A DNA stretch of 63,229 nt from a virus (IMGVR_UViG_3300012007_000011:64155-127383); one strand, 5' to 3'; shown: positions 25,218 through 40,596, counted from the stretch's first letter. Notes: generated by a model from the sequence alone, not told the origin. Numbers and translations are program-made.

Positions 25218-25349
25218 ATGAGGGAAAATTATTAAGAGAGACAAACATGTAATAACATGCCGAATCGGAATCGAACCGATAATCTAAAACTTAAAAGGTT
25301 TTTGCTTTATCCATTAAGCCATCGAAGTAACTCTTAAACCGCCACTCAT
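25218..25349 (-). ncRNA. Y-RNA-like element Y1 with tRNA-Lys(UUU)-like cargo
   Basis: AUGAG/CUCAU stem, UGGCGG loop, UUAAGAG/CUCUUAA stem, UUACUUCG, then D arm, AAAAC-CUUUUAA-GUUUU, T arm AUCGG-UUCGAUU-CCGAU. Confidence 0.7.
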
Positions 25350-25360
25350 GTATATTTTAA

Positions 25361-25496
25361 AAACCGAAGAATAATAAGAAGTCTAAAACTATAAATGTTT
25401 AAGTTGGACTTGAACCAACAATCTTAATTTCCCATAAATTACGTCTTTACCATTTTGACTATTAAACGAAGTAAGACTATCTTCCGCTATCGGTTT
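25361..25496 (-). ncRNA. Y-RNA-like element Y2 with tRNA-like cargo (UGG loop)
   Basis: AAACCGA/UCGGUUU, UAGCGG, AAGAUAGUCU/AGACUUCUU, UUACUUCG, D arm, UAAUU-UAUGGGA-AAUUA, GUUGG-UUCAAGU-CCAAC. Confidence 0.7.
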
Positions 25497-25517
25497 GTTT
25501 GTTTTTATTTATTAAAA

Positions 25518-25602
25518 ATCAGAGAAAAACATTCAGACTATAATCTAATACTATAAAAACCCATTCTTTATCATTCGAAGTAAGTCTGAAACCACTACTG
25601 AT
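25518..25602 (-). ncRNA. Y-RNA-like element Y3, minimal; identical to 33460-33544
   Basis: AUCAG/CUGAU, UAGUGG, UUCAGACU/AGUCUGAA, UUACUUCG, AU-rich loop. Confidence 0.7.
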
Positions 25603-25606
25603 TTCT

Positions 25607-25648
25607 TTTCATTTGCAAATATAATGCTTATTTTTGAAACTTCCAAAT
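25607..25648 (-). promoter_or_regulatory. Bacteroidota-type promoter driving Y3-Y2-Y1
   Basis: Nearly identical to the ompA promoter repeat (TTTG-N19-TATATTTG). Confidence 0.75.
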
Positions 25649-25712
25649 ATTTTTGAAGAAAAAATCAAAGAAATATATATTTTTAATAAAAATTAAGAGG
25701 AAATCGGCAACG

Positions 25713-25805
25713 TCAGTTTGTCAAATTCCCTCTCATTAACAATTCACCCTGTATTTCAAGTAATGAACGTAAATGTTTTTTAACATTATTAAAAATTTTC
25801 TTCAT
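25713..25805 (-). CDS. smORF, 30 aa
   Basis: MKKIFNNVKKHLRSLLEIQGELLMRGNLTN. Confidence 0.5.
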   Translation of the reverse strand: MKKIFNNVKKHLRSLLEIQGELLMRGNLTN

Positions 25806-25839
25806 AAAAATCGTTTTTAAATTAAACTTATTTTTTTTT

Positions 25840-25947
25840 TTAATCAACCTTATTAACATTATAAGGTATCATTCCTGTTGGCAAAAACGCATTGTTTAAA
25901 ATGGCGTTCTGCCATGTCTTGTTACAAAATTTTAAAATTTTCTTCAT
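25840..25947 (-). CDS. smORF, 35 aa
   Basis: MKKILKFCNKTWQNAILNNAFLPTGMIPYNVNKVD. Confidence 0.5.
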   Translation of the reverse strand: MKKILKFCNKTWQNAILNNAFLPTGMIPYNVNKVD

Positions 25948-25978
25948 AATATTTATCATCTTTAAAAGTTTAAAAAAG

Positions 25979-26077
25979 TTATTTTCCTAAATTGTTCAGA
26001 AATTTAAAAGTGTAATAAAGACTGCCACATATTGCAACAGTATATACACCCAATAAATACGCTATCTCAATTGTCAT
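25979..26077 (-). CDS. smORF, 32 aa, single transmembrane segment
   Basis: MTIEIAYLLGVYTVAICGSLYYTFKFLNNLGK. Confidence 0.5.
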   Translation of the reverse strand: MTIEIAYLLGVYTVAICGSLYYTFKFLNNLGK

Positions 26078-26268
26078 AATCATTATCTATTTAACAAAAT
26101 TATTTTCTAACAATTAGACAAAACTGAACTCATTAAGCCGATTTCCTCTTTAAATCTTTATAAACTTTATATATAAATAGTTCTGTGTTCGCACACAAAC
26201 AAGTTATAACGCTTGTTTTTAACAATTACAAGTAATTTTATGACATATATCAAGATGTTTTGAAAAAT

Positions 26269-26362
26269 AAGGTGGCTCAGGGCGCCTGTTTCTACTGATT
26301 TAAGCCTGATTAACTCAACAACAATCCTTTTAGTTTCTGTCTATAAATCCAGACACCACCTT
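26269..26362 (-). ncRNA. Candidate small structured RNA
   Basis: AAGGUGG/CCACCUU closing stem with inner UGUCU/AGACA and UCAGG/CCUGA hairpins. Confidence 0.35.
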
Positions 26363-26373
26363 AATATGTTATG

Positions 26374-26457
26374 CTCGCAGAGTGCGATTCGAACACACGG
26401 TAGCAATGCTACGGCAGTTTTGGAGACTGCTGGGTTAAACCACTCCCCCATCTGCGA
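26374..26457 (-). tRNA. tRNA with CCA (Trp) anticodon and long variable arm
   Basis: UCGCAGA/UCUGCGA, GCAGU-CUCCAAA-ACUGC, variable arm GUAGC-AUU-GCUAC, G73. Confidence 0.85.
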
Positions 26458-26463
26458 ATGTTT

Positions 26464-27180
26464 TTATAAACCTAAATATTTTTTTAATTCTTGTTTCTTT
26501 GTTGGTAAACCATAATGGGCAAACCATTTGGTTATTGCTTTGTCTGATACATTATATAACTTACCAACACCCCTAAAACTACCAACTTCTTTAAAAATTT
26601 CACACAACGTTTCTTTTGAAGGATGATTTTTAGACCATCTATTTTCTAAAAAAGTCAGCCATTTTTCTTTTTCTATGTGTTTTTTAGAAATATTATTAGA
26701 ATAAGTTGTTGTTTTCTCTTTATTAGCATTTTTACCCGCATATGTATCTGTTTGACTGTGGCAATTAGGACATAGTAATTGTAAATTTTCCAATCTATTG
26801 TCATGGTGATTACCATTAATGTGATGTAATTGCAATGATATTGGTTTTCCATGCCATTCTGATAACCCACATTCTGGATTTTCACATTTATATTTTTTAA
26901 TACCCTCTTTAATTAATCTTTCTTTGAGTCTATTTGTGCTTTTATATGAACTATTTTCCACTAAAATATCCTTTAAGTCCATTGGTGGATTATTTTTATT
27001 CCAATAAACTTTCTTATATGAAAAAACTAATTCAATGCCCAACTCTTTTGCTAAATTACGCACTTCCTTATAATCTTCACCACCAACATTTTTAATCCCC
27101 ATTCTATGACAAAGGTCTAACATATTAACACATTTGTCAGCATTCTCAATAAGTTTATCTATTGCGTATTCACGTTTCAT
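26464..27180 (-). CDS. HNH endonuclease (free-standing, homing-type)
   Basis: CENPECG..LQLHHINGNHHDNRLENLQLLCPNCHSQT; start moved to MKREYA. Confidence 0.9.
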   Translation of the reverse strand: MKREYAIDKLIENADKCVNMLDLCHRMGIKNVGGEDYKEVRNLAKELGIELVFSYKKVYWNKNNPPMDLKDILVENSSYKSTNRLKERLIKEGIKKYKCENPECGLSEWHGKPISLQLHHINGNHHDNRLENLQLLCPNCHSQTDTYAGKNANKEKTTTYSNNISKKHIEKEKWLTFLENRWSKNHPSKETLCEIFKEVGSFRGVGKLYNVSDKAITKWFAHYGLPTKKQELKKYLGL

Positions 27181-27284
27181 ATCTATAATCCTTTTTATTA
27201 TAAATATTACGTAAATTTCAAAAATCGAACTTATTTGGAAAATTATTTTGGTTCGATTTACCAATTAAAACTATCTATTTAAAA

Positions 27285-27545
27285 AGCCTACAAGTTGTCA
27301 TCTTATAGGCCAAACTTTCACAACGATGAAAGTAAAAAGTGGTTGGTTTACCTTTAGTCTCCACTTAAACCACAGAGAAATTTGAGACTGTCTATGTATT
27401 ACTTTTGTCACAGACAACAAATGTCGTTTATAACACCCAAACAACATTCAAAACGTTTCTTTTTAAGGATGCAAGAAAATAACCTCACTTTGTTTACAGA
27501 TAAAGTTACGAAATACATTATCCACGTCTTTCCGTGCTGTCAGAC
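27285..27545 (-). ncRNA. Candidate structured RNA or trailer downstream of tRNA-Ala, ending in a terminator
   Basis: Starts GUCUGACAGCACGGAAAGACGUG; ends GCCUAUAAG/CUUGUAGGC-UUUUU. Confidence 0.35.
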
Positions 27546-27547
27546 TG

Positions 27548-27620
27548 TGGACCGTATCGGATTCGAACCGCAAATCTTCCGTGCAAGGGAAGTGTGTTAG
27601 CCAATTACACCATACAGCCC
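27548..27620 (-). tRNA. tRNA-Ala(TGC)
   Basis: Cloverleaf, CU-UGC-AC loop, G3:U70. Confidence 0.9.
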
Positions 27621-27643
27621 ATTTAAACGAATATTAAGCCATG

Positions 27644-27717
27644 TACCCCCAGTAGGATTCAAACCTACAACTTTCAGATTAGAAGTCTGATACTCTATTC
27701 AGTTGAGTTATAGGGGC
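27644..27717 (-). tRNA. tRNA-Arg(TCT)
   Basis: UCAGA-CUUCUAA-UCUGA. Confidence 0.9.
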
Positions 27718-27719
27718 TT

Positions 27720-28679
27720 TTAATTAACACAATATAATTTGTCTATTTTTTCATTGTATCTATAAAATTTACATTTTAATTCATTTATTATTTGTTTCTG
27801 TCTTTTTATATCTTTCTCTTTCAATATGTTATTATAAACATCTTTATAATGTTTCGGTTCATCATATTCAAAAGCAATATTTAGTTGTTCATCATAACCA
27901 TCTAGAAAGAAGCCACAAACTTGTTTTTCTCCACCATTTTCTGCATGTATTAAATTCCATCCATTTTTACTATTCAAAAAATCAATATATTTGCATGCAT
28001 TCTTTGAATAGTGTTGTCCAAAATCTCCATTACCATTCTTTTTAATATATTCAATCATTTTTTCACGCAATATTTGTTTTGTTTCTTCTGTGTGTGGTTT
28101 GCCATTAATCTTGAATTTTCCGTCTTCAAAAGATTTTTTACGTGTTTCCGTTTGTTTCAATATTCTAACATCATCTTTTGCTGTTTTTCCTTTGTTCCAT
28201 ATTGTATGTCCGTTTGCATTTCCACCGTTTCCTTTCCGATTTGGACATTTTGTTCTATTTGGATTTTCACAACATGCTTCTTCGTGTATTGCTAAACAAC
28301 CAGGATTTTTTACTTTTTTTCCACAAAATCTACATGAATATTCTGATGTATCATTGTGAATATGTTCTCTGGCATTTTTTGTATTCTCAAGATTGGCAAT
28401 ATACTTCGGATTCTTTTTACAATATGTTACATGACCCCCCAATTTATATTTATTATCAAAAACTTTGCCACAATACTTACAAACATATTTTGGTTTTTCA
28501 TAACTGTAAAATTGTTTTGTTTTCTTATCTATAATTTGTATACCTAACTTAATAGCAATTTTCTTTATGTGACTTCCTCTTTTTATACCGTATAAATCGG
28601 CAATTGTTTGATAAGGAACTCTTTTTTCTATTAAGGCACGCAAATTATCTTTTTCGTTTTGCCAATTAATTCTATGCAT
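27720..28679 (-). CDS. Zinc-finger/NUMOD-type PD-(D/E)xK endonuclease (homing-type)
   Basis: CKYCGK/CRFCGK, IWNKGKT, KPHTEETKQ, FLDGYD..IAFEYDEPKH. Confidence 0.75.
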   Translation of the reverse strand: MHRINWQNEKDNLRALIEKRVPYQTIADLYGIKRGSHIKKIAIKLGIQIIDKKTKQFYSYEKPKYVCKYCGKVFDNKYKLGGHVTYCKKNPKYIANLENTKNAREHIHNDTSEYSCRFCGKKVKNPGCLAIHEEACCENPNRTKCPNRKGNGGNANGHTIWNKGKTAKDDVRILKQTETRKKSFEDGKFKINGKPHTEETKQILREKMIEYIKKNGNGDFGQHYSKNACKYIDFLNSKNGWNLIHAENGGEKQVCGFFLDGYDEQLNIAFEYDEPKHYKDVYNNILKEKDIKRQKQIINELKCKFYRYNEKIDKLYCVN

Positions 28680-28755
28680 ATTAATAACTATATTTCCTAT
28701 TTATTTATAAATATCAACAATAAGTGTAAAATACATCTTTAATTCAAAAAAATTG

Positions 28756-28785
28756 ACCTTGTTCTATCCATTGAACTATCGGAAG
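28756..28785 (-). pseudogene. tRNA 5'-half remnant
   Basis: CUUCCGA UA GUUC AAUGGAUA GAAC AAGGUC with no T arm or 3' acceptor strand. Confidence 0.55.
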
Positions 28786-28933
28786 AAATTTTGTTTTCAG
28801 GCATGAAACAATAACCGGTTTTATATTCTCGCCATATTCCTTTAACGAGCAATTCGTATCTTTTCAGGGATTGCCACCTCTTGATATGTTACCACATCAA
28901 GTTGTACCTTTTATTATTAGGTAGGCACTGACC

Positions 28934-29278
28934 TTATCTGTTCATTAGTCTTCTGTATGCCTCGTCATAACCCTCCATGAATCCTTTTTTCCATTCATCA
29001 AGATTCTCGTTCACGGGTTGTTTCTTTTCAACAAGATTGCCATTGATAAGCACTGACCTGTCTAATTTTTCATTGACTTTCTTCATAGCATCAATTCGTT
29101 CTTGACCGCCAATTCTTCTAATGAAGGCATCCATATCCAAAGCTTCATACTCACCTACTTTATCATTGACTTCCTTATGAAATTTCTTCTCATCTTCCTT
29201 GAACCTTTGCAGAACCTCTTCATCAGTTAGAGATTCATCATTAAGTTGCTTCTTGTAATCTTCCAATAAACTACCCAT
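28934..29278 (-). CDS. Hypothetical protein
   Basis: 114-aa ORF with typical composition. Confidence 0.65.
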   Translation of the reverse strand: MGSLLEDYKKQLNDESLTDEEVLQRFKEDEKKFHKEVNDKVGEYEALDMDAFIRRIGGQERIDAMKKVNEKLDRSVLINGNLVEKKQPVNENLDEWKKGFMEGYDEAYRRLMNR

Positions 29279-29307
29279 AATATCAAAACGTTTTATATTT
29301 TATTTTG

Positions 29308-29389
29308 TGCTCACGAAGGGATTCGAACCCATACGCCTTACGACACTTGGTCCTTAGCCAAGCCTGTCTACCATTTCCAGCACGTGAGC
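29308..29389 (-). tRNA. tRNA-Leu(AAG)
   Basis: CUUGG-CUAAGGA-CCAAG, class II variable arm, A73. Confidence 0.85.
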
Positions 29390-29395
29390 AAATTG

Positions 29396-29470
29396 TACTC
29401 CCAATGAGATTCGAACTCATATCTTTGCCTTGAGAGGGCAACCACCTAAACCGATTAGTATGATGAGAGC
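29396..29470 (-). tRNA. tRNA-Glu(CTC)
   Basis: UUGCC-CUCUCAA-GGCAA. Confidence 0.85.
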
Positions 29471-29579
29471 ATATAAAAGGTTGGAACTCTTGCAAGATAA
29501 TCACTGTACCCCTCTTTTCGGTCCTCCAACTTAATGGCAACCCCTACTTATACTCATACATGATTAAATTCCAACTTTG

Positions 29580-29657
29580 TACTCCAAGTAGGACTCGAAC
29601 CTACACCCGAAGACTTGATTTTGAATCAAGCGTGTCTACCAATTCCACCATTGGAGC
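29580..29657 (-). tRNA. tRNA-Leu(CAA)
   Basis: CUUGA-UUCAAAA-UCAAG. Confidence 0.9.
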
Positions 29658-29836
29658 ATTACACATTCTCTACATAGGATTTCCTTTTTTAAAGAGCAAC
29701 TGCAATAATCTCTTCCTATGGTCATTGAAAATGCTTTTAATATGGTTTTAGTTTGAACATCAATTGTAGTACTACTTGATATTTTCAATATACTATACAC
29801 TCCGAAAACTCATATCTTAAATGTGTGCAGTATTCG

Positions 29837-29907
29837 TTGGGTTATCCGGATTCGAACCGAAACTAACAGAACCAAAATCTGTGGTGCTACCATTACACCA
29901 TAACCCA
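29837..29907 (-). tRNA. tRNA-Gln(TTG)
   Basis: ACAGA-UUUUGGU-UCUGU. Confidence 0.9.
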
Positions 29908-29949
29908 TTGTAAATCAATAATTTACAAAAGTTTGTTAAAGTAAATCTG

Positions 29950-30036
29950 CGGAGAGCAGTGGAGTCGAACCACACCCATGTTACTGAGCGAAGCAGGTTA
30001 GCAATCTGTCCCTATCACCGTCAAGGTTTACTCTCC
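29950..30036 (-). tRNA. tRNA-Ser(GCT), weak anticodon stem
   Basis: UU-GCU-AA loop, long variable arm, G73; two mismatches in the anticodon stem. Confidence 0.75.
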
Positions 30037-30040
30037 AAAG

Positions 30041-30113
30041 TACCCCGAAAAGGAATCGAACCCTTACCGTGACATCCGTAGTGTCGTATTCTAATCCGTT
30101 AAACTACCGGGGC
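30041..30113 (-). tRNA. tRNA-Arg(ACG)
   Basis: GACA-CUACGGA-UGUC. Confidence 0.9.
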
Positions 30114-30128
30114 ATCTATCCTTTCTTG

Positions 30129-30219
30129 CGGAAGTAGAGGGACTCGAACCCCCACACCGTTATTCACGATTACTAGCGGTTTTCAAGACCGCTGCCTTAC
30201 CAATTAGGCTTATACTTCC
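30129..30219 (-). tRNA. tRNA-Ser(TGA)
   Basis: GCGGU-CUUGAAA-ACCGC, long variable arm. Confidence 0.9.
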
Positions 30220-30790
30220 TTGTACGGGAATTTGTTTAATTGTTTCTCCAAAGTTTATCCCGAAACTACTCTCTGGATATTTGGGTGCGACCCAACCTCC
30301 GTTTTTGTATACTGAATGAGCCTAAAATGAAATTCTTGCAAGAATATTGATGATTCGAACACCTACCTAGTACAATTGCTAGATACCCCATTGCCATCGA
30401 GGAATATAATTTCAAATTAGACATTTATAACTTATCCTCTCCCCTTATTACCATCACTTCTGTAGAGAGTTTACCCGCCCGATATAAGTCATTTTGCTCA
30501 GTATATAATATGTGTCGTTATTTCTCTAACATATAAAAATGAAAGGTCAACCGTATTCCCTTTCGTGTACCGATAAGTTTTTCATTGTGTTCAAGGCACA
30601 CAACTGCGCAAGCAACGAGGGCGGTATTTCAACTTAAACCTCAGTCAGACGGAAATAAATAGCATATAGATAGGACGTTTTTTAGGACTTTCACCTATAG
30701 TTTTATACTTTTCAGATTTCGCTGAAACATCACCATTGATTCAAGGTGTGAACCCTGTGCAGAATTGTTAAACAGTAATTATTGTTTTAC
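30220..30790 (-). ncRNA. Probable ROOL large ncRNA (boundaries approximate)
   Basis: About 570-nt ORF-free structured tract between tRNAs, with GAUGUUUCAGCGAAAUCUGAAAAGU near the 5' end and GGAGGUUGGGUCGCACCC..AUCCAGAGAGUAGUUUC near the 3' end, matching ROOL sequences as I recall them. Confidence 0.6.
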
Positions 30791-30859
30791 GGCTACTGCA
30801 TTTTGCCAACCTATCATTCTCGGGTTAAACGTTTTTGCATATACTATTGTTTTAAAAAG

Positions 30860-30933
30860 GGTGACGTGTTGGATTCGAACCAACGTAAACAAGTGCCACA
30901 AACTTGCGCTTAAGCCACTCAGCCAACGTCACC
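30860..30933 (-). tRNA. tRNA-His(GTG)
   Basis: CAAGU-UUGUGGC-ACUUG, G-1:C73. Confidence 0.9.
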
Positions 30934-30948
30934 ATATTATTAGATATG

Positions 30949-31019
30949 TGTACCCACTGGGAATCGAACCCAGGTCACGTGATTAAAAGTCACGGGCTTT
31001 ACCCCTAAGCTATGAGTAC
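30949..31019 (-). tRNA. tRNA-Lys(TTT)
   Basis: CGUGA-CUUUUAA-UCACG. Confidence 0.9.
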
Positions 31020-31025
31020 AAAAAG

Positions 31026-31099
31026 CGGAACGTGGGAGATTCGAACTCCGAACTTCACTGTGACAGAGTGATATGTTAGCCAATTACACTACACGCTCC
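31026..31099 (-). tRNA. tRNA-Asp(GTC)
   Basis: UCACU-CUGUCAC-AGUGA. Confidence 0.9.
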
Positions 31100-31110
31100 A
31101 TTATTTTTTG

Positions 31111-31184
31111 TGGTCACGGACAGACTTGAACTGCCGACCCCCATCTTATCAGGATGGTAATCTAACCAACTGATATACGTGACC
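31111..31184 (-). tRNA. tRNA-Ile(GAT)
   Basis: CCAUC-CUGAUAA-GAUGG. Confidence 0.9.
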
Positions 31185-31284
31185 ATTATATAAATGAGGG
31201 TTTCTTGCTATTTACTACCCACAAATGTCAACGACACCCAATTATTCCTTAAATGTTCTCCCGGCTTTCGTTCTTGGAGCCCAG

Positions 31285-31370
31285 TAGCCGAAGCGGGACT
31301 CGAACCCGCACAGGCATTACTGCCCCTCAGATTTTAAGTCTAATGTGTCTACCGGTTCCACCATTCGGCC
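31285..31370 (-). tRNA. tRNA-Leu(TAA)
   Basis: UUAGA-CUUAAAA-UCUGA, class II. Confidence 0.9.
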
Positions 31371-31372
31371 AA

Positions 31373-31690
31373 CTATTTATCAAAATACATATATTCAAAA
31401 TTTTCGTTAATTGGTGCATTTTTACTGATTAAATCTGTTCTTTTAATCTTCCTACCTAATGCCTTTTCCATACATTCATAGCATAAATATAAATGTTCTT
31501 CATCTTTATGTTTAGCCCTCAAACCACTTCTATAATAATGTTCGATAAACTTATTATGTGCTTCCCTTTCATAATTTTCCAAACCATAAAAATGAACAAC
31601 TTCTTCCCACTTTTTGTCTTTTAACATTGGAGATTGACAATCTCCATAAATGAATTTTCTTCCACAAACCTTACATTGACATCTACCCAT
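31373..31690 (-). CDS. Hypothetical Cys-containing protein inside the tRNA array
   Basis: CQCKVC..CYEC; start moved to MGRCQC because the longer start overlaps tRNA-Thr. Confidence 0.65.
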   Translation of the reverse strand: MGRCQCKVCGRKFIYGDCQSPMLKDKKWEEVVHFYGLENYEREAHNKFIEHYYRSGLRAKHKDEEHLYLCYECMEKALGRKIKRTDLISKNAPINENFEYMYFDK

Positions 31691-31716
31691 AATATTAAAC
31701 CTTTTAATTATTTTTG

Positions 31717-31788
31717 AGCCGGTGATGGGGGTCGAACCCACAGCCTACTGATTACAAATCAGTTGCACAACCATCGTGCTCCACCGGC
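31717..31788 (-). tRNA. tRNA-Thr(TGT)
   Basis: ACUGA-UUUGUAA-UCAGU. Confidence 0.9.
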
Positions 31789-31800
31789 AAATTTATCTTG

Positions 31801-31873
31801 TGGGAAGGGGTGGAATCGAACCACCATAGCCAGATTTTCAGTCTGGTGCATTGACCAACTTTGCTACCTTCCC
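31801..31873 (-). tRNA. tRNA-Phe(GAA)
   Basis: CCAGA-CUGAAAA-UCUGG. Confidence 0.9.
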
Positions 31874-31875
31874 AA

Positions 31876-32058
31876 TTGTACGTTTTGATAAGGAGAACGT
31901 ACAAACTCATCTCGGATTGTATATAATGTCCTTATTGAAATTCTTGCAAGATTACCCTTGGCAGTGTTCCAATACACGTTATTATTCCGGACTGACTCTG
32001 ACCTTAACCGAACCAAAGATAAATTTCAACTTGAACACCCTTCCAAATCCCTTTATCT
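31876..32058 (-). ncRNA. Candidate structured RNA sharing motifs with the ROOL tract and 34035-34140
   Basis: UGUUCAAGUUG ... CUUGCAAGAAUUUCA; terminal UUGUACGUU/AACGUACAA hairpin. Confidence 0.45.
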
Positions 32059-32074
32059 ATTTTTTTTTTCTATG

Positions 32075-33454: not shown

Positions 33455-33459
33455 AAAAA

Positions 33460-33544
33460 ATCAGAGAAAAACATTCAGACTATAATCTAATACTATAAAA
33501 ACCCATTCTTTATCATTCGAAGTAAGTCTGAAACCACTACTGAT
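33460..33544 (-). ncRNA. Y-RNA-like element Y4, exact 85-bp copy of Y3
   Basis: Identical to 25518-25602. Confidence 0.7.
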
Positions 33545-33558
33545 ATGCTGTAAAAAAT

Positions 33559-33710
33559 AACAGAGGACATCTAAAAAAACTGAAGACTTTTATAAATTCT
33601 TTTTGCCAAGAACTGCGTATACCATTTCGCCAAATTTCTGATTTTATGGTAGAAATTATCGGATTCGAACCGATATTATATTCGAAGTAAGTTTTTTTAC
33701 CACTACTGTT
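33559..33710 (-). ncRNA. Y-RNA-like element Y5 with circularly permuted tRNA domain (YrlA-type order T, acceptor, D)
   Basis: AACAG/CUGUU, UAGUGG, UAAAAAAAC/GUUUUUUUA, UUACUUCG, AUCGG-UUCGAAU-CCGAU, AUUUCU-ACCA..AGAAAU, GCG-AAAUGGUAUA-CGC. Confidence 0.75.
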
Positions 33711-33722
33711 ATATTCTTTTAG

Positions 33723-33794
33723 TGGGGGGAGTAGGATTTGCACCTACGACTTACTGCTTATGAGACAGTCACGCTACTACTGCGTCATCCCCCC
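33723..33794 (-). tRNA. tRNA-Met/Ile2(CAT), atypical
   Basis: CU-CAU-AA loop; T loop UGCAAAU; D loop lacks GG. Confidence 0.75.
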
Positions 33795-33806
33795 TTATTA
33801 TATAAA

Positions 33807-33942
33807 AAACCGAAGAATAATAAGAAGTCTAATTTTAAAGATAAATGTGGGACTCGAACCCACGATTTTAAGTACCCAAAAAACTTACGTATTAACCACT
33901 ATACAAATTCATCGAAGTAAGACTATCTTCCGCTATCGGTTT
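33807..33942 (-). ncRNA. Y-RNA-like element Y6, Y2 scaffold with a different tRNA-like cargo
   Basis: Ends identical to Y2; cargo GUAU-AGUGGUUA-AUAC, UAAGU-UUUUUGGGU-ACUUA, GUGGG-UUCGAGU-CCCAC. Confidence 0.7.
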
Positions 33943-33959
33943 TATTTTTTAGGCATAAA

Positions 33960-34140
33960 AAGGAAATCCATTACATTCCACTATCCTGTACAACTGTCAA
34001 TCAAGCGTTGCCTACAGTAACTTCTTCTGTTTATCTAAAAGTTGAAATTCTTGTACAAGTGGGGATGAAAAGGATGGGTAAATTTATCAAGTCCGTAAAT
34101 CCCAATTCCAACTTGAACAATGACAGATGTTTCCTTTATG
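33960..34140 (-). ncRNA. Candidate structured RNA related to 31876-32058
   Basis: AUAAAGG..UGUUCAAGUUG..CUUGUACAAGAAUUUCAA..UUGACAGUUG. Confidence 0.4.
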
Positions 34141-34159
34141 GATTTTTTTTTTATTAAAT

Positions 34160-34370
34160 GAGTAAGTAAATTTACGAGCCACGGACTGTTGAGGATTTAC
34201 AGAAAAAAAACACACCTCATCTGTTGCGTTGCCTCTTATGATACCTCACGGTAATCAACACGTTTCAACAAGCTGACGGTCACATTTAGTGCCGATGACT
34301 ACGTTTCACACAATTGACTAGTATAATGTAAAACTTACCTTGTTCACTACTAAGTGGTCTGTACTTACTC
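34160..34370 (-). ncRNA. Candidate 211-nt structured RNA
   Basis: 9-bp closing stem GAGUAAGUA/UACUUACUC and GNRA-capped hairpins (ACC-GUGA-GGU and others). Confidence 0.5.
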
Positions 34371-34464
34371 AAAAAGCCAAAAATAAGTTTCCGTTACGCA
34401 AATTTCTCCATCTTGCTTGATGGGCTGTTGTGTTCATCCTTATTCATTTTATGGCTTTTATAAG

Positions 34465-34536
34465 CGGGGAAGGGGAATTACGATATCCCGACCTACTGAT
34501 TAACAGTCAGTTGCTCTGCCTCTGAGCTACTTCCCC
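34465..34536 (-). tRNA. tRNA-Asn(GTT), atypical T arm
   Basis: ACUGA-CUGUUAA-UCAGU; T arm GGGAU-AUCGUAA-UUCCC; G73. Confidence 0.85.
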
Positions 34537-34558
34537 ATTGTTTAAAACAAACAATGGA

Positions 34559-34584
34559 ATTCTAATTTTACTGAACTAAATCCG
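34559..34584 (-). pseudogene. Degenerate copy of the tRNA-Pro 5' half
   Basis: CGGAUUUAGUUCAGUAAAAUUAGAAU versus tRNA-Pro CGGAGUUUAGUUCAGUAGGUUAGAAU. Confidence 0.55.
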
Positions 34585-34589
34585 TACAC

Positions 34590-35120
34590 CAATTTAAAAT
34601 TCTTGCATTATATCAACGTATAGTTTTATGCTACCCATCTAATGATGTCGTTGAAGTCTAAAAACTCTTGGTAACGGATTGTGGTTTTTCACCTAACCTC
34701 TCCAATATCTGTTTAAAATGTATTGTTGCTACATCTGTCATAGAGCAATTAACTTTTTTAAAAGTGCAGATTCTCACTGCTTTTCTCTTTCACAGTCTCC
34801 ATCACGTTGCTTTACGTATCACACTGACCTCAATCACGTGTTTGCCACTATAAGGTCTTTCAACTGTCAATTCAGTATGCCCATTGAGTTCTCAGGATTC
34901 TTCATCGCTTAATTCAAACTCACCCTCACAACAACACGAAATAAGACTTCCTAACAACGCTCCTATGGAATTACCCAATGGTCTGTCACCTTCAAGCTTT
35001 CTCTTGGTAAAATCCAAGGCTTGGGATAAGGTTCAAGGTTCTTGGTTTGAAGTCTTCCTACTATAAACCTTTTTTCGGATTTCTCTGAGACCATTGTTAT
35101 CACAACAAAATCTCAAAGAA
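34590..35120 (-). ncRNA. Candidate large structured RNA (about 530 nt)
   Basis: No credible ORF; UGAGA/UCUCA, AAGACUUC/GAAGUCUU and CACGU/ACGUG helices; carries the UUGACAGUUG and UGCAAGAAUUU motifs. Confidence 0.45.
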
Positions 35121-35220
35121 TTATGCCTTAATTTATATAATTTTGTTCCAATATGTCAAAGAACGTTTCGAAAGAACTTACATTCAATAATGTTGCCATT
35201 AAATCATTGTCTTTCTGAAT

Positions 35221-35260
35221 TTCGTTTGCAAAGGTAATACATATTTTTGGATTTACCAAA
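35221..35260 (-). promoter_or_regulatory. Bacteroidota-type promoter for the RNA island
   Basis: TTTGG-N19-TACCTTTGCAAACGAA. Confidence 0.75.
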
Positions 35261-35297
35261 TATTTTATGTTAAAAAACCTTAATACAATCAATTTTG

Positions 35298-35478
35298 TCG
35301 GAGTTGTGTGACTCGAACACACGACCACTGCATCGCTGTATAAATGGTAATCGCAACCATTTTTAATCCTTATGAGGATTAGAATTATCTAAATATATTC
35401 TATATACAGTTTCATTTTTTTCAGTCTTTTGTTGACTGTATCCAAATGCAGCATTCTAACCTACTGAACTAAACTCCG
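35298..35478 (-). tRNA. tRNA-Pro(TGG) interrupted by a 107-nt insert (35335-35441)
   Basis: 5' exon CGGAGUU UA GUUC AGUAGGUUA GAAU G CUGCA UUUGG and 3' exon GA UGCAG UGGUC GUGUG UUCGAGU CACAC AACUCCG A join into a perfect cloverleaf. Confidence 0.9.
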
Positions 35479-35507
35479 TTTTTCAAAGAACTCTTTATCA
35501 TTTCTGA

Positions 35508-35548
35508 TTTCGTTTGCAAAGGTAAGTCATTTTTTTGACTTGGCCAAA
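35508..35548 (-). promoter_or_regulatory. Bacteroidota-type promoter upstream of tRNA-Pro
   Basis: TTTGG-N19-TACCTTTGCAAACGAAA. Confidence 0.75.
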
Positions 35549-35693
35549 CTTTTCATTAACTTTTTTCATTTGTTATTTGTGTTTTAACGTTTCTTTACGT
35601 TTTTATACAAAAAGAAAACCTTGATTTCAACTTTTTGTGGGAGTTTCTTTCAAGGCTTTCAGGGAAATATATATTGAGTTTAAAACGGATTGT

Positions 35694-35873
35694 CTATGCT
35701 ATCATCCTAAGTTTTGTTTTATTTCTCTTATATACCTTTTTTATTCCTCCACTGTTTGCATCATTATACCAAAAATGTTTTGGTTCTGATTGCAATGTAC
35801 ATGGTAAATATTGGGGAACTAACTGTTCTGTTCCTCTACTAATAAAACCATATGTATTATCAAAACTAAACAT
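35694..35873 (-). CDS. Small hypothetical protein (59 aa), absent from ORF track
   Basis: MFSFDNTYGFISRGTEQLVPQYLPC...; TATTTATA motif near 35910. Confidence 0.45.
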   Translation of the reverse strand: MFSFDNTYGFISRGTEQLVPQYLPCTLQSEPKHFWYNDANSGGIKKVYKRNKTKLRMIA

Positions 35874-35958
35874 TCTTTAATATTATTTGTTGAAATCAAT
35901 TATCGTATTATAAATATATAGCAATTTTCAAAAAGTTTCAAAAATTAAGAAAATTTTT

Positions 35959-36276
35959 TTACTCATCACCATCAGAAAAGCCATTATTCATTAACTCTTC
36001 ATATAAAGCTTCAAGATTTTGGTCAACACTAAGACTTGGGTCAACCTCTATTGTAACTCCCATACATGACATGGTTTGCTTGTTGGGGTCATATTCGATT
36101 TCACCATACTGCCATTCACCTTCTTGATTTTTCATTTCAAATCCCCAAAGAGGTCTATTATAATTTTGTCTGGCTGTATTATAGTCTTGTTCAAAATCTT
36201 CTTTTAATACTCTCTTCACTGATTCAGAAATCATATTTCTGAGTTCGCTTTCAGTAAGTCTAATTGTTCTCTTCAT
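35959..36276 (-). CDS. Hypothetical protein with MKRTIRLTESELR tag
   Basis: Shared leader; AACTATTTATATAG upstream. Confidence 0.75.
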   Translation of the reverse strand: MKRTIRLTESELRNMISESVKRVLKEDFEQDYNTARQNYNRPLWGFEMKNQEGEWQYGEIEYDPNKQTMSCMGVTIEVDPSLSVDQNLEALYEELMNNGFSDGDE

Positions 36277-36315
36277 ATATTGTTTTCTTATCTCCTTTAT
36301 TTTCTATATAAATAG

Positions 36316-37758
36316 TTAACTTTTGTCAAAAAAGTGTTTTTCTGTACAATAATTAAGCCACATTTCAAGTTCTTTTGAAGAAAATGTATAATAACCACCA
36401 TTTTTATATTTGCCAACAGCCTTGATATATTCAACAAAATCATTTGAAAGGTCAAGTCTGATTTTTTCCATAACTTTAGTTTCAACGTCTCTATTGTATA
36501 ATGGTATATAATAGCCGCTATATACACCTGTTTGTTCTCCTCCCACAATAAAATATAACTTTATATCATCACTGTTTCGTATAAGATTATTAATGGCTAC
36601 TTTATCATATTTAACATCATTTAATGCTTGTGTCCTGCCATATAAGTACCAAGCAGGATTTTCAGTATTGACTTCCATTTCTATGGCTTTGTTTCTCATG
36701 AAATCAACCAAATTATTATCAATGTCCAACAAACTCAAAGGTTTTCCATTTTCATCATACGGATAAAAGAAATAATGTGTTTCACCATTCGATGCTTTAT
36801 AAACAGTTATAATGTTTTTATCTTCTTTATTTGGATAATCATCAATAATAAAGAATTTATCATTCAATGTTGCAAAACCATTCTTAACCCTTATTCTGTT
36901 TTTATCTTTCTTATCAATATTCTCAATATCTGAAAGCATTTTCAATGTGTTTCTATCTGTAAGATATATTTTTCCATTTACCATGCAGTCTTCAAGTTTT
37001 TCCATTGTCTGAATAAATTTTAAATCTGTATCAGACGTATTTCTATAACAGACAAATATATTATTCGTTTTCGGTGTCTTGGATAACAGCGTTATGCAAG
37101 TATATGTGTTAAACCCCTCAAAAACTTTATAATGTCCATATTGATATATTTCAAGCAATGTCTTGCTTTCCTTAAGATAATTTCTGAAATTAGTTCCTGC
37201 TGTACTTGTAAGCCAACTATTTGGTGTAATATATGCAAGTTTTCCATTTTCATTTAACATGCTTATCCCTATTTCAAAGAAAACAAGATACATATCCGTC
37301 ATTCCACCATTGGCAAACTTATATTTTTTTACGATATCTCTTTTTACCTTTGATATATCATGTATATTACAATAAGGTGGATTGCCGATAACATAATCCA
37401 TTTTATTGTCAAAATAACTAACAAACATCGCATCATCACAAATGATGTCCCAGTCAACTGAACCCAATGAATATTCTTCGGCTATCTTATTGAGGTTATT
37501 AATGGTTTCTCTGACTAATTTTGCATCAATCTCGATTCCGTGTATATATGTCTCAAGTTCCTTAATTGTTTCCTCTTTCGGTAAACCACACATAATACAT
37601 ACATTGATATATGTTCTGACAACTTTTTTCAATATTGCACCATTGCCACAACTATTATCAATTATATGTTTCTTTCTTATTTTATCACATTTATATTCCA
37701 ATTCCTCAAACATTGTATCAACCACATGTTCTGGAGTAAAAACCTGCTCATTATGCAT
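36316..37758 (-). CDS. Eco57I/type IIG-like N6-adenine DNA methyltransferase
   Basis: IDNSCGNGAIL and IGNPPY motifs. Confidence 0.85.
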   Translation of the reverse strand: MHNEQVFTPEHVVDTMFEELEYKCDKIRKKHIIDNSCGNGAILKKVVRTYINVCIMCGLPKEETIKELETYIHGIEIDAKLVRETINNLNKIAEEYSLGSVDWDIICDDAMFVSYFDNKMDYVIGNPPYCNIHDISKVKRDIVKKYKFANGGMTDMYLVFFEIGISMLNENGKLAYITPNSWLTSTAGTNFRNYLKESKTLLEIYQYGHYKVFEGFNTYTCITLLSKTPKTNNIFVCYRNTSDTDLKFIQTMEKLEDCMVNGKIYLTDRNTLKMLSDIENIDKKDKNRIRVKNGFATLNDKFFIIDDYPNKEDKNIITVYKASNGETHYFFYPYDENGKPLSLLDIDNNLVDFMRNKAIEMEVNTENPAWYLYGRTQALNDVKYDKVAINNLIRNSDDIKLYFIVGGEQTGVYSGYYIPLYNRDVETKVMEKIRLDLSNDFVEYIKAVGKYKNGGYYTFSSKELEMWLNYCTEKHFFDKS

Positions 37759-37763
37759 AAATT

Positions 37764-38693
37764 TTAACCTTTTAATTCCGGTAATTTTCCATTAAAGTTA
37801 TTAAGTGTATTCCCATAATCTAAATACTCATAAGCAATCTTTGGTATAAACCTATTCATATGTCTTTCTATTTCCTTATATTTCTTGTTAATATAATTTA
37901 CAAAATTTTTATAAGTTCTGAATTTTAGATTAGAAAGGTCTGATACCCACGATAAAACAATATTTTGTGATTTTTCATCACTAATATTACTGAAAAAATC
38001 TATATAACTTTTTATTAAACTATAACGTTTATACACATCAGTTTTTCTTAGAAAATCAACTATTTGTTGTATATTAACAAAATATTTATCACAATTTTGC
38101 AATTCACCTTTTAATTGCGATAAGTGAGCATTTACTTCAAAATCTGTAAGATAATATAAAATATATGATATATATTTCTTTTCATTATCATAGTTTCCGA
38201 CTGAATTGTTTAAATAATATCCGTTATCTAATGCTTTGTCAGTAATACTTGGCTTAACATTTATTTTTCTATTATAGTCTTCATAAGCATGTGTCAATTC
38301 GTGCATAAGATTAATAACAATGTTATTGGATGCTAAATTCACACTTAATTTTAATGGCAAATATTTACGTGTATTATTAACTGACTTAACAATTTGTGAA
38401 GACGTATTATAAGCGGCACCTGTATTGGAGTTTTCATCATAATAAACCATTATTTCGAACGTTTCTATCCACTTACAGTTTTTTGTGTGCAAATTTAAAA
38501 CTCTACTTTCGCCACTTTTCAAATTTATTTCTTTAATATTGTTGTAAATTTGTTTTGCAAGTTCGTAACAGCCATCAAAAACACCATAACTCTCATTAAG
38601 TTTTCTGAAAGTTAACTTTGAATTATGTTCATTAAGGAATTTTCCATTCCTATAATAAAATTCAATAAAAATATGTGTAAATAGATTATTCAT
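37764..38693 (-). CDS. HExxH-containing hypothetical protein, possibly virion-associated
   Basis: LMHELTHAYED ... FEVNAH. Confidence 0.6.
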   Translation of the reverse strand: MNNLFTHIFIEFYYRNGKFLNEHNSKLTFRKLNESYGVFDGCYELAKQIYNNIKEINLKSGESRVLNLHTKNCKWIETFEIMVYYDENSNTGAAYNTSSQIVKSVNNTRKYLPLKLSVNLASNNIVINLMHELTHAYEDYNRKINVKPSITDKALDNGYYLNNSVGNYDNEKKYISYILYYLTDFEVNAHLSQLKGELQNCDKYFVNIQQIVDFLRKTDVYKRYSLIKSYIDFFSNISDEKSQNIVLSWVSDLSNLKFRTYKNFVNYINKKYKEIERHMNRFIPKIAYEYLDYGNTLNNFNGKLPELKG

Positions 38694-38724
38694 TTTTTTT
38701 TTGGTTAAACCATTAATTTAAAAA

Positions 38725-38758
38725 GCCCACAGAGCAGAAGTAACCCTGTTCCGTGAGC
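38725..38758 (-). terminator. Terminator of the Ro60 gene containing GUUACUUC
   Basis: GCUCACGGA..UCUGUGGGC-UUUUU. Confidence 0.6.
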
Positions 38759-38782
38759 AAACAATAGAAGTTTCACTGAAGT

Positions 38783-40456
38783 CTAAATCTCAATTGCTTC
38801 AATTTCTTTGATGATAGCGTCCCAACCTCGGCACTGAGACTTGATAGTGTCAAAAATTTTGTCACTCCAACCAGCAATGTTAAGGATTCGCTGTGACTTG
38901 TCGAATACACTCGTTCCGCCACTCTGACGAATATTTACCACAATGAAGTTGGCATTCGGATTAATTTTTCTGAACTCTTTGAAAAGTTCATGGAAATGCT
39001 CACTTTTTTCGCCATATGTATGTCCATACCAAGCGGTAAATGGGCCACCACGTCCAATCTGACAATCTGAGAAGACAATAATATTGTCAATCTTCTTTCT
39101 TTCCTTTACAACATTCTCAAGGAATGTGTAAATACCCGCTTCAGTTGCACCTCCGCAACGTCCACCAATCTCATATGATTCCTTATTGAAATCAAGGAGT
39201 TTCACATTACGCTTGTAAGGTACTTGGATAAGTCTGTCACCGAACAAACCAACATACACATCATGCTGTCTCCAAGCCATCATGCTTGCGAACAAATGCG
39301 CAATCATTGAAGAATTAGTTTTGCTGAATGCAGAGACACGTGAATGTCCACCAGCATCACCACGCATAGAACCGCTATCATCTACAAGGATTGCACAATT
39401 ACCATCCAATACAGGAATGTTCTGGCAAGCAATCTCAATGGCCGTCTCAATTGCATCAAGCAAGTTCTTCTTCAGTTCATTAAACTTACTCTCACTAACT
39501 TGCTGCTTTGACTCTTCGCTCTCAAAGACAATACTGGTTGTCGGCTTTGTCTTTGTATCAGCATACATTACCTTCTCAATCTCAGCGTAAGCGGTTGCGA
39601 AGCGGAATGGAAGAAGCCTTGAATTGAGAATCTTCTTTTCAATTGTCAGTTGCTCACAAGCATCATTCACCTTATCAGGAGCATATAAGAGAATGTTTCT
39701 GAGGTTGCGAAGCAGGTTCATAACAGGCATACCCTTAACATTGTCAAGAACTGCTGTAATTGCCTCACGCTTTGCCTCCATCTTTTCTTCCTGTGTAGCA
39801 TCCTTTGTTGTCTGTCCTGCCTTAGTCATTTCCTTTTCAAGAACCTTGCTCTCATAAAGGTCTGCAAGACTTTCACCGTTTACCAGACGCTTGTATGCCT
39901 CTGCATTCTTCTGATTACCCTTTGGGTGGAAAAGACGCACAAGGTCAATAAGTGAAACCTCACGATTCTGCATCTTATACTTGTCAATCTGATAAGCATC
40001 AAGACGTTCCAATGCCTCCTTGAAGCCTTTCTTGATTGAATTTGGAATCTTCTTAAGGTCATTAAGTCCCATTCCATTAAGGTTAGCATATGCTGACACG
40101 ATTTCACTCATGTCATCCGGACGCACAACGATTCGGTTATAGAAACGCTTACCCCAATCAGTACCACCAACATACTTTGCAAGCAATGCAGATACAAGGT
40201 GAGTTACTGAACGAAGATTACCCTCGTTACGTGCATAGATTGCCAACTTAGCAGCAAACAGTGGGTCAACCTTATCAACAAGGTCTGTAATGCGCTTAAC
40301 AATCTCACCCTCTCGCTCATAGTATGAGTTCTGCAAAAATGTAGTCATTACAGTTGACACCAACAACTCCTTATCTGCCAACTTAAATGCCATCTCACCC
40401 ATGTAGTTCACTTCTGTTGGCTTAACACTCTCTTTCTTTGAATTGTACTTTCCCAT
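38783..40456 (-). CDS. rsr: Ro60/TROVE-domain ribonucleoprotein with vWA domain
   Basis: N-terminal NYMGEMAF..KELLV, AIYARNEGNLRSV, ALLRNLRN-like NLLRNLRN, LLPFRF, MIDAS LVDDSGSM, IIVFSDCQ, IAGWSD. Confidence 0.9.
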   Translation of the reverse strand: MGKYNSKKESVKPTEVNYMGEMAFKLADKELLVSTVMTTFLQNSYYEREGEIVKRITDLVDKVDPLFAAKLAIYARNEGNLRSVTHLVSALLAKYVGGTDWGKRFYNRIVVRPDDMSEIVSAYANLNGMGLNDLKKIPNSIKKGFKEALERLDAYQIDKYKMQNREVSLIDLVRLFHPKGNQKNAEAYKRLVNGESLADLYESKVLEKEMTKAGQTTKDATQEEKMEAKREAITAVLDNVKGMPVMNLLRNLRNILLYAPDKVNDACEQLTIEKKILNSRLLPFRFATAYAEIEKVMYADTKTKPTTSIVFESEESKQQVSESKFNELKKNLLDAIETAIEIACQNIPVLDGNCAILVDDSGSMRGDAGGHSRVSAFSKTNSSMIAHLFASMMAWRQHDVYVGLFGDRLIQVPYKRNVKLLDFNKESYEIGGRCGGATEAGIYTFLENVVKERKKIDNIIVFSDCQIGRGGPFTAWYGHTYGEKSEHFHELFKEFRKINPNANFIVVNIRQSGGTSVFDKSQRILNIAGWSDKIFDTIKSQCRGWDAIIKEIEAIEI

Positions 40457-40516
40457 ATTCGTTACACTATTTAATTTGTTATTAAAAGAAATTAACTAAC
40501 TCTCATTTGAAATTTA

Positions 40517-40596
40517 ATCAGAGAAAAACATTCAGACTGTTATCAATTTTTTAAGCCTGTTCATAATATCGAAGTAAGTCTGAAACCACTACTGAT
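40517..40596 (-). ncRNA. Y-RNA-like element Y7 in the leader of the Ro60 gene
   Basis: Scaffold ends identical to Y3/Y4 with a different loop; 60 nt upstream of the ATG. Confidence 0.75.

Follow-up and report, generated by a model that had tools for sequence, protein, structure and literature searches.

The 63,229-nucleotide (nt) stretch of viral DNA IMGVR_UViG_3300012007_000011:64155-127383 (hereafter the window, in which the coordinates of all elements are counted) raises the question of what the seven similar elements on its minus strand, E1 to E7 (Table 1), actually are: RNAs that partner the Ro60 (TROVE-domain) protein encoded on the same strand, unusual precursors belonging to the 26-tRNA island of that strand, or a repeated piece of DNA. 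The window makes up the second half of a virus record of 127 kb in IMG/VR (GC 31%; 34% complete according to CheckV). Conservation of Ro60 and its Y RNAs extends from bacteria to humans, human Ro60 being an autoantigen in lupus and Sjogren syndrome, and the role of the variable "effector" half of Y RNAs has been little understood so far. A sequence-only reading of the window had regarded the elements as Y-RNA-like RNAs with one conserved scaffold and swappable cargo, tied to Ro60. In our estimate, made from sequence comparisons, the chances are roughly three in four that the seven elements are Y RNAs partnering Ro60, in which modular effector inserts are carried on a conserved handle; very probably, the family belongs to the known Ro60/Y-RNA particle as a modular branch that has been insufficiently described.

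The word TTACTTCG occurs seven times in the window, always on the minus strand, while 1.3 occurrences are expected and none of 100 shuffles reached seven; the pattern T[AG]G[CT]GG precedes every copy by 8-9 nt (7/7). No scaffolded copy was found in the other half of the 127-kb record. Minimum-free-energy folding of each element alone recovered the same architecture in all seven cases, namely a closing helix, a bulged U, two pairs RG:CY (AG:CU in the window, with GG:CC in E7), an asymmetric loop in which an unpaired YGG faces a U-rich 3' strand of 5-8 nt, an inner helix of 7-9 base pairs (bp), the invariant UUACUUCG and the cargo. The shared architecture noticed from the sequence alone is thus real, and one detail of it needs to be corrected: what had been described as a URGYGG internal loop consists of a single-base bulge (U), two paired bases (RG, with the CY of the 3' side) and only three unpaired ones (YGG). 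E4 and E5 are identical in sequence, E1 has the same stems, and E2 and E6 have common stems, so that the window genome offers four independent stem versions. Three types of cargo had also been distinguished, and rightly so, as E2, E6 and E7 carry tRNA-like bodies of normal order, E3 a circularly permuted tRNA, and E1, E4 and E5 bare AU-rich loops. As to the copy placed in the leader of the Ro60 gene, E1 does end 60 nt before the ATG of the open reading frame (ORF) with the PF05731 domain. All seven elements lie on the Ro60 strand, E2-E7 at a distance of 5-15 kb from the gene.

Loci and contigs from IMG/VR and GenBank that were compared with the window are denoted below by L-numbers. Relatives of the window Ro60 were found in 16 viral contigs (26-65% identity), and the scaffold was present in 16 of 16, mostly with 2-7 copies, on the Ro60 strand and often in the Ro60 leader; a 118-kb scaffold named "Prevotella sp. 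CAG:1092" represents a very close relative, and among GenBank phages the nearest Ro60 relatives belong to the crAss-like phage cr111_1 (59% identity) and phage csAssE-Sib. Scans of whole records of the relatives with the RNA pattern gave 2-6 copies per genome, compared with 0-1 for the reversed pattern. In a rigid closure test of 15 pairs (6 + 2 + 7), passed with 14 or more, 39 distinct instances succeeded, while the null rate was 4.4% of random positions; 29 unique scaffolds were 98% paired, in comparison with 62% when the partners were permuted. The covariance-model (CM) search of related phages that the sequence-only reading had proposed was run with a model, R1, built from 15 short members; its 65 matches included 54 distinct sequences, and in the alignment of these 91% of cells were paired against 59% in shuffled alignments, changes on both sides of a pair occurred in 339 cells against 105, and the covariation score was 0.838 against 0.214, a value of 0.838 being reached by none of 500 shuffles and slid controls giving 0.11-0.19. 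These figures lean toward the model, because the alignment was fitted to it; the statistics of the regular-expression and closure searches, which are independent of R1, agree with them. For members with long cargo the regular expression combined with the closure test was more sensitive than R1, which lost such members with its filters off and still missed E3 and E6 with default filters. The resulting consensus is N6-R-G / U / R-G / U-G-A / 8-bp stem / W-U-A-C-U-U-C / cargo / stem / R-A-U-U-U-U / C-Y / N6, in which the G:C of the RG:CY pair and UAC.UC are invariant, and RG:CY is either AG:CU or GG:CC throughout the family, without exception. The covariation of the stems, seen earlier within one genome, is therefore kept in homologs.

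These data bear directly on the notion that the elements are repeated DNA with no function as RNA, such as a dispersed repeat, a transposon end or a recombination site within the tRNA island. The exact duplication of E4 and E5, the identical ends of E2 and E6, and the presence of HNH and GIY-YIG endonuclease genes in the region would suit such an origin; nevertheless, the 29 unique scaffolds change their stem sequences and yet stay paired, the strand is always that of Ro60, and the units are bracketed by promoters and terminators, which leaves this notion with a next to negligible probability.

The linkage to Ro60 was also approached from the opposite side, by scanning IMG/VR with a 14-base RNA pattern and filtering the matches for closure, the protein not being used at all. 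This search brought nine further contigs, and all nine encode TROVE (eight above the Pfam cut-off and the ninth, in an ORF of 551 amino acids (aa), with E 8.6e-5); in these contigs, three of which are complete genomes of 50, 100 and 299 kb, the RNAs often stand directly upstream of the TROVE gene. In contrast, TROVE was found in 0 of 6 long control contigs with chance matches to the pattern that had no closure. Considering that small phages of 43-50 kb, which have no tRNA islands, also possess arrays directly upstream of Ro60, it is Ro60, and not the tRNA island, with which the family is linked. The location on the Ro60 strand, described above for the window, holds true for 25 other contigs as well.

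In GenBank the handle occurs in the phages Caulobacter CcrColossus, Xanthomonas Tenjo, crAss-like cr111_1 and csAssE-Sib. It is also present in a 635-kb uncultured phage. Tandem arrays of handles directly upstream of TROVE comprise at least six copies in CcrColossus and four or five in Tenjo, these copies being GC-rich with GG:CC pairs. Some of the GenBank records give ordinary tRNA-gene labels to stretches that belong to scaffold RNAs upstream of Ro60, either as their cargo or as another part of them: tRNA-Gln in cr111_1 (L175, 10917-10992), tRNA-Tyr and tRNA-Lys in csAssE-Sib (L176, 11666-11738 and 11811-11884), and tRNA-Gln in CcrColossus (L179, 2137-2204). Outside phage records, the genome of the isolate Lachnospiraceae bacterium A4 (L192, KE159560.1, 3700-3970) contains, on a scaffold of the bacterial chromosome, a compact module in which Ro60 is preceded by two scaffold RNAs, one of them a Pro(UGG) mimic with the acceptor CUUCG/CGAAG; the module adjoins a serine recombinase gene, which suggests that the Ro60 ribonucleoprotein (RNP) travels as a mobile unit. 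A linkage to RtcB, by analogy with rsr-yrlBA-rtcBA of Salmonella, was considered and rejected, as no RtcB was found across the 127-kb record (34% complete); it is also absent near the Ro60 module of Lachnospiraceae bacterium A4.

As for the known Y RNAs, searches of the window elements against Rfam, at gathering thresholds and at E<=10, gave only tRNA matches and none to YrlA, Y_RNA, ROOL or GOLLD; the gathering threshold of the Rfam YrlA model (RF02553) is 69 bits, and the best score in the window's own genome is 12.7 bits. The comparison with YrlA that had been suggested is nonetheless informative in the relatives, where full-length matches below the threshold fall inside the same scaffold: 34.5 bits in L004, 29.4 in L017, 55.9 and 38.8 in Tenjo, and 42.3, 30.5 and 29.9 in CcrColossus. 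The handle shares with YrlA-type RNAs the pairing of the 5' and 3' ends around an internal loop, and its WUAC falls at the position of the conserved YUAY that begins the variable loop of YrlA (PMC4201824; bioRxiv 10.1101/312249). The YrlA succession of T arm, closed acceptor and D arm is found only in E3, as E1, E4 and E5 contain no tRNA body and E2, E6 and E7 contain one of normal order. With respect to the motif GNCGAAN0-1G, the window copies continue after UUAC as UUCGAAUG or UUCGAUNG; the YrlA CM places ACUUCGA of L004 on model positions 1-7 and uses another register in Tenjo, which makes the register of the motif ambiguous. Because the subthreshold YrlA matches lie inside the handle and the arrays stand upstream of TROVE, we read the handle as a probable counterpart of the Rsr-binding module of YrlA together with its "anticodon stem", in a divergent and fuller form. 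Taken with the two-way co-occurrence with TROVE and the covariation, these scores uphold the proposal of a Y-RNA-like scaffold with swappable cargo tied to Ro60.

The likenesses between the window family and the YrlA/YrlB RNAs include the position next to Ro60 on the same strand, the paired ends with an internal loop, and the several copies per locus, and E3 resembles YrlA in the order of its arms while the plain-hairpin members resemble YrlB. The handle differs from YrlA by its own consensus (bulged U, RG:CY, UGA/U-rich loop, WUACUUC) without a family-wide GNCGAAN0-1G, the range of cargo is wider, including permuted tRNAs that keep the anticodon arm, bodies of normal order and isolated mimics of the anticodon stem-loop, and the copies number up to seven and are partly scattered through a tRNA operon. 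The vertebrate Ro-binding helix, which consists of a helix, a single bulged pyrimidine, two pairs, an asymmetric loop and a second helix, is what we take to be a parallel of the handle. It is the architecture only that is alike, since neither a match to the metazoan Y RNA model (RF00019) in Rfam at E<=10 nor the sequence GGUCCGA/UUGACU was found; moreover, vertebrate Y RNAs have no tRNA-like module, unlike the cargo-bearing RNAs of the window. The bulged Ro-binding helix of metazoans and Deinococcus is treated by Green et al. (1998) and Stein et al. (2005), as cited in PMC4201824 and PMC12135203.

The closest solved structures to the window Ro60 are those of the Ro60 of Thermus phage phiLo (9KOP and 9L5Y, E 5e-13), followed by 1YVP (E 3.5e-4). 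The phiLo protein was shown by electrophoretic mobility shift assay and cryo-electron microscopy to bind two Y-like RNAs, Yrl1 and Yrl2, encoded upstream (PMC12135203), so that phiLo is like the window phage in having Ro60 with Y-like RNAs immediately upstream. The phiLo RNAs, which we set beside the handle by their description only, had been selected for having a CGAA motif and for folding into stem, bulge and stem, and neither tRNA-like cargo nor a family of many topologies was described for them. CcrColossus had earlier been reported to possess Y RNA-like RNAs (Chen et al., 2014, PMC4201824, as cited in PMC12135203).

The three cargo classes of the window recur in the relatives. Short "bare" cargos there often comprise a 5-bp stem with a canonical 7-nt loop of the anticodon type, CUGUUAA in L010-L015, Tenjo and CcrColossus and CUGUAAA in L169. 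Permuted cargos have two topologies, one YrlA-like with no anticodon arm and the other with a complete anticodon arm after the D arm, the handle exiting at the position of the variable loop; when rotated, cargos of the latter topology are called by ARAGORN as Tyr, Leu, Lys, Cys and Ser tRNAs. Cargos of normal order either begin right after UUACUUC and have a full acceptor stem (Pro UGG recurrently; Asn, Gln) or use UUCG of the motif as an acceptor remnant of 4-5 bp (all four Lys UUU, as well as Gly and Ile). In the window, E3 contains, in this order, a T arm, an acceptor closed by a loop, a D arm and a hairpin resembling an anticodon arm, and its rotated sequence is called as a tRNA by ARAGORN. 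Its closed acceptor (33655-33632, minus strand) reads AAUUUCU-ACCA-UAAAAUC-AGAAAUU, that is, with an encoded discriminator and CCA; this internal ACCA was considered as a mark of a processed permuted tRNA and rejected, being conserved in 0 of 7 related permuted cargos. The cargo of E2 is called Gln UUG by ARAGORN and is by alignment a body of the Pro(UGG) type with an expanded 9-nt loop, UUUUUGGGU; its anticodon region thus forms either a 9-nt loop containing UGG or a mismatched stem. The loop of E7 is canonical, and its acceptor is a short helix formed with the conserved motif (5/7 pairs) and followed by an extra hairpin.

Such cargos suggest another explanation, by which the elements are tRNA-precursor cassettes: the paired leader and trailer would be a signal for processing, stability or expression, the cargos of normal order would become working tRNAs, and Ro60 would be no more than a neighbour, or else would act in the quality control of these precursors. 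The Rfam tRNA gathering threshold of 29 bits is indeed exceeded by the cargos of E2, E6 and E7, acceptor stems are perfect in 7 of the 15 scaffolded tRNAs, the first base of the tRNA coincides with the last base, G (or C), of the conserved motif, a CCA-adding enzyme is among the products of the phage genes, such cargos carry tRNA-gene annotations in GenBank records, and YrlA of Mycobacterium smegmatis is cut by RNase P and gains CCA (PMC4201824). For the cargos of E2, E6 and E7 to acquire free ends, processing would be required. However, bare-loop and permuted members on the same handle are not accounted for, and neither are the arrays next to Ro60 in small phages with no tRNA islands. The other 8 of the 15 scaffolded cargos have defective acceptors, whereas all seven acceptor pairs are present in 136 of 148 free tRNAs of the same loci; the acceptor is truncated in 4 of 4 Lys(UUU) cargos, and among the window copies E6 has A33, in place of U33 found in 99% of free tRNAs, and E2 the 9-nt loop. 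Besides, each of the three cargo anticodons in the window (E2, E6 and E7) repeats that of a canonical island tRNA. These include a tRNA-Pro(UGG) at 35298-35478 (minus strand) with a perfect 7-bp acceptor and a 107-nt insert just 3' of the anticodon, which scores 48.5 bits with the Rfam tRNA model across the gap and was missed by ARAGORN; in view of it we rejected the idea that E6 is a genuine tRNA because it is the only tRNA-Pro of the phage. On balance, the precursor explanation appears improbable.

The anticodon behaves differently from the rest of the cargo. The orthologous elements of L007 and L016 differ in 2 of 126 nt, both in the anticodon (GAU versus UCU), while the surrounding 1.8 kb are 85% identical, and L013 has UUU at the same position; since the two elements differ in the anticodon only amid such flanks, their body is under purifying selection and the anticodon is not. 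This has to be considered together with a tether of the RYPER type, in which the handle would bind Ro60 and the cargo would be mainly a stable fold or a dock linking Ro60 to host PNPase or another exonuclease for the decay of structured RNA, with no decoy function. The Y RNA of Deinococcus radiodurans links Rsr to PNPase (as summarised in PMC4201824), phiLo Ro60 forms complexes with Yrl RNAs and host PNPase in vitro (PMC12135203), and a full tRNA body is lacking in the members with bare loops (E1, E4, E5 and the two copies of L010-L015), all of which would be natural for a tether. On the other hand, many of the "bare" or permuted cargos keep canonical 7-nt loops of the anticodon type (CUGUUAA, CUGUAAA, CUUUUAA), and the anticodon is the part that changes fastest among orthologs; the two facts together suggest that the anticodon loop itself is read by something. 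We therefore consider the tether a serious but rather unlikely alternative.

Returning to Y RNAs with modular inserts, the shared scaffold, with its closing helix, bulged U, RG:CY pairs, UGA(YGG)/U-rich loop, inner helix of 7-9 bp and unpaired WUACUUC, would serve as the Ro60-binding handle. Its binding determinant is not necessarily the URGYGG loop, since the conservation of the bulged-U helix and of the invariant WUACUUC is just as high. The insert would be the effector module, taking the form of a plain hairpin similar to YrlB, of a permuted tRNA similar to YrlA (in the present case with an additional hairpin resembling an anticodon arm) or of a tRNA of normal order, whose body would be joined to the handle through its acceptor end. 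Sequence comparison establishes that the family exists, how it is built, that it accompanies Ro60 genes and that its cargo resembles tRNA, while binding to Ro60, processing and biological role are inferred. The RNAs are expected to be of polycistronic origin, E1 being made with the Ro60 mRNA, E5-E6-E7 from a promoter of their own and E2-E4 within the tRNA operon, and to be processed from these transcripts. Most likely, RNAs bound to Ro60 would present tRNA or anticodon-loop shapes to tRNA-binding proteins, which is the most economical assumption because of the mimicry of tRNAs and anticodon loops, the defective acceptors and the turnover of anticodons. We favour their use as baits or competitive inhibitors against tRNA-cleaving defence enzymes of the host; alternatively, they could be adaptors through which Ro60, along with PNPase or some other nuclease, reaches substrates related to tRNA. 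Host defence enzymes that cleave tRNAs are the most attractive target of the cargo, since a decoy function has been discussed for YrlA (PMC7790460), phage-encoded tRNAs counter tRNA-cleaving defences (PMC10264068; PMC11555353), and the window phage encodes both RlaP and a CCA-adding enzyme. The defence-countering phage tRNAs resemble the cargos, in which the types Lys(UUU), Gln, Tyr, Asn and Arg recur, by their tRNA shape and by anticodon loops that deviate from or match host targets; they differ in being free and functional, while the cargos are locked in a handle linked to Ro60, often with no free acceptor end possible. A bolder generalisation, which we put forward tentatively and consider doubtful, is that the Ro60 handle is a general display platform for tRNA and anticodon-loop baits in phages and in some mobile bacterial modules, with anticodons quickly retuned to host defences that cleave or modify tRNAs, the RNP being a means of anti-defence and not of RNA quality control.

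Several observations weigh against the interpretation of the elements as Ro60 partners. The Ro60-negative control set is small (6 contigs), and two borderline matches to the pattern, L153 and L161, come from incomplete contigs with no TROVE; we rejected them as true members and treated them as chance matches, given their atypical 3' loops of 11-12 nt along with the lack of TROVE. The Rfam YrlA and Y_RNA models find nothing in the window even at E<=10, and GNCGAAN0-1G is not characteristic of the whole family, in which only UACUUC is conserved and the bases after it are G, A or U. Finally, about half of the cargos of normal order (Pro, Asn and Gln types) have intact 7-bp acceptors, and these could be tRNA precursors released by RNase P.

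As to novelty, the modularity of Ro60/Y RNA particles, the tRNA mimicry of YrlA, the YrlA/YrlB pair, loci with multiple YrlA-like RNAs, and a phage Ro60 with two Yrl RNAs are already known, and the earlier impression that so many topologically different Y RNAs, dispersed through a phage tRNA island, had not been described holds only in part: Y RNA-like RNAs and multi-copy loci as such are not new, while what is new is how many topologies of cargo a single handle carries and that its arrays reach seven copies. In the literature surveyed, whose coverage was incomplete, no paper was found on the handle consensus, on cargo of multiple topologies or on such arrays. A handle that bears whole tRNAs, inside-out tRNAs, anticodon hairpins or nothing amounts to a series of natural swap experiments on the effector half of Y RNAs, and the question can be addressed at the bench because the arrays adjoin Ro60 in the cultivable phages CcrColossus and Tenjo. 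It bears on the reasons why large phages carry Ro60 and on the contest between phages and hosts over tRNA cleavage. In practical terms, several "tRNA genes" of GenBank phages are the cargo of these RNAs, and most members of the family escape the Rfam YrlA model.

Table 1. Scaffold RNAs, the Ro60 gene and predicted transcription signals of the window (CM R1, covariance model of the scaffold; closure, pairs formed of 15)
Feature	Coordinates	Strand	Evidence
E1: scaffold RNA, bare 33-nt loop, 5' leader of Ro60 mRNA	40514..40599	-	CM R1 66.8 bits; closure 15/15
E2: scaffold RNA (E6 stems), normal-order tRNA-like cargo	33806..33943	-	CM R1 30 bits; Rfam tRNA 55.3 bits; acceptor 7/7
E3: scaffold RNA with circularly permuted tRNA	33556..33713	-	closure 15/15; fold; weak Rfam tRNA match 33650-33717
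E4: scaffold RNA, bare 38-nt loop, abuts tRNA-Gly	33457..33547	-	CM R1 60.4 bits
E5: scaffold RNA, bare loop, leads three-element operon	25515..25605	-	CM R1 63.5 bits; promoter motif upstream
E6: scaffold RNA, normal-order tRNA-Pro(UGG)-like cargo, A33, acceptor 6/7	25358..25497	-	Rfam tRNA 47.7 bits; fold
E7: scaffold RNA, tRNA-Lys(UUU)-like cargo	25215..25352	-	CM R1 47.3 bits; Rfam tRNA 56.2 bits
Ro60 (TROVE + vWA) protein gene, 557 aa	38783..40456	-	PF05731 E 1.5e-19; PF25045 weak
Bacteroidota-type promoter motif (TTTG...TAnnTTTG), ahead of E1 and Ro60	40610..40641	-	motif scan
Bacteroidota-type promoter motif, ahead of E5-E6-E7	25616..25647	-	motif scan
Intrinsic-terminator-like hairpin (strong), end of E5-E6-E7 unit	25157..25181	-	hairpin search
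Terminator-like hairpin just past Ro60 stop, UUACUUC in loop	38729..38749	-	hairpin search

Two transcription units can be delineated from the signals listed in Table 1. The first runs from the promoter motif (40641-40610) through E1 and Ro60 to the terminator-like hairpin (38749-38729), and the second from its promoter motif (25647-25616) through E5, E6 and E7 to the strong terminator (25181-25157), while E2-E4 are embedded among the genes of tRNA-Asn, tRNA-Met and tRNA-Gly. Promoter motifs of the Bacteroidota type number 20 on the minus strand of the window and 2 on the plus strand, about 1.7 being expected. The hairpin that follows Ro60 occupies the position at which the relatives L010-L015 have a full second scaffold RNA, and it may be a miniature or a remnant of a Ro60 site. 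The leader between E1 and the Ro60 start codon (40457-40513, minus strand) is conserved among the relatives L002-L006 in the 60 nt preceding the ATG, with UUUCUUUUAAUAAC...AAAUAGUGA, and ends, beside the start codon, in a UAGUGA-like word resembling the 5' motif of the handle; this segment may be a putative autoregulatory site. In L005 (IMGVR_UViG_3300028048_000064) the Ro60 leader contains, at about 9860-9990, another, GC-richer structured sequence closed by AGAAAGAUAA/UUAGUCUUUCU and no scaffold RNA, the usual scaffold array lying some 20 kb from it.

Several other features of the window deserve mention. A weak tRNA-Sec-like match at 29950-30037 (minus strand) scores 33.4 bits, under the threshold of 47. 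The ORF-free segment 30220-30790, which the sequence-only reading had taken for a possible ROOL RNA, matched neither ROOL nor GOLLD in Rfam at gathering thresholds or at E<=10. An ORF of 309 aa following Ro60 was considered as a conserved partner and rejected, being present only in L006. The minus strand at 3026-4453, 6874-8214, 16703-22583 and 44826-45512 encodes the CCA-adding enzyme with an HD domain, the RNA-repair nucleotidyltransferase RlaP, DnaJ, Hsp70, an FtsH-like AAA protease and ClpP. Directly downstream of Ro60 lies the gene of a methyltransferase of the Eco57I/N6_Mtase family (36316-37758, minus strand), and its adjacency to Ro60 is kept in L002-L006 and L183 (40-44% identity), which hints at a functional link of this enzyme with Ro60, its substrate possibly being RNA and not DNA.

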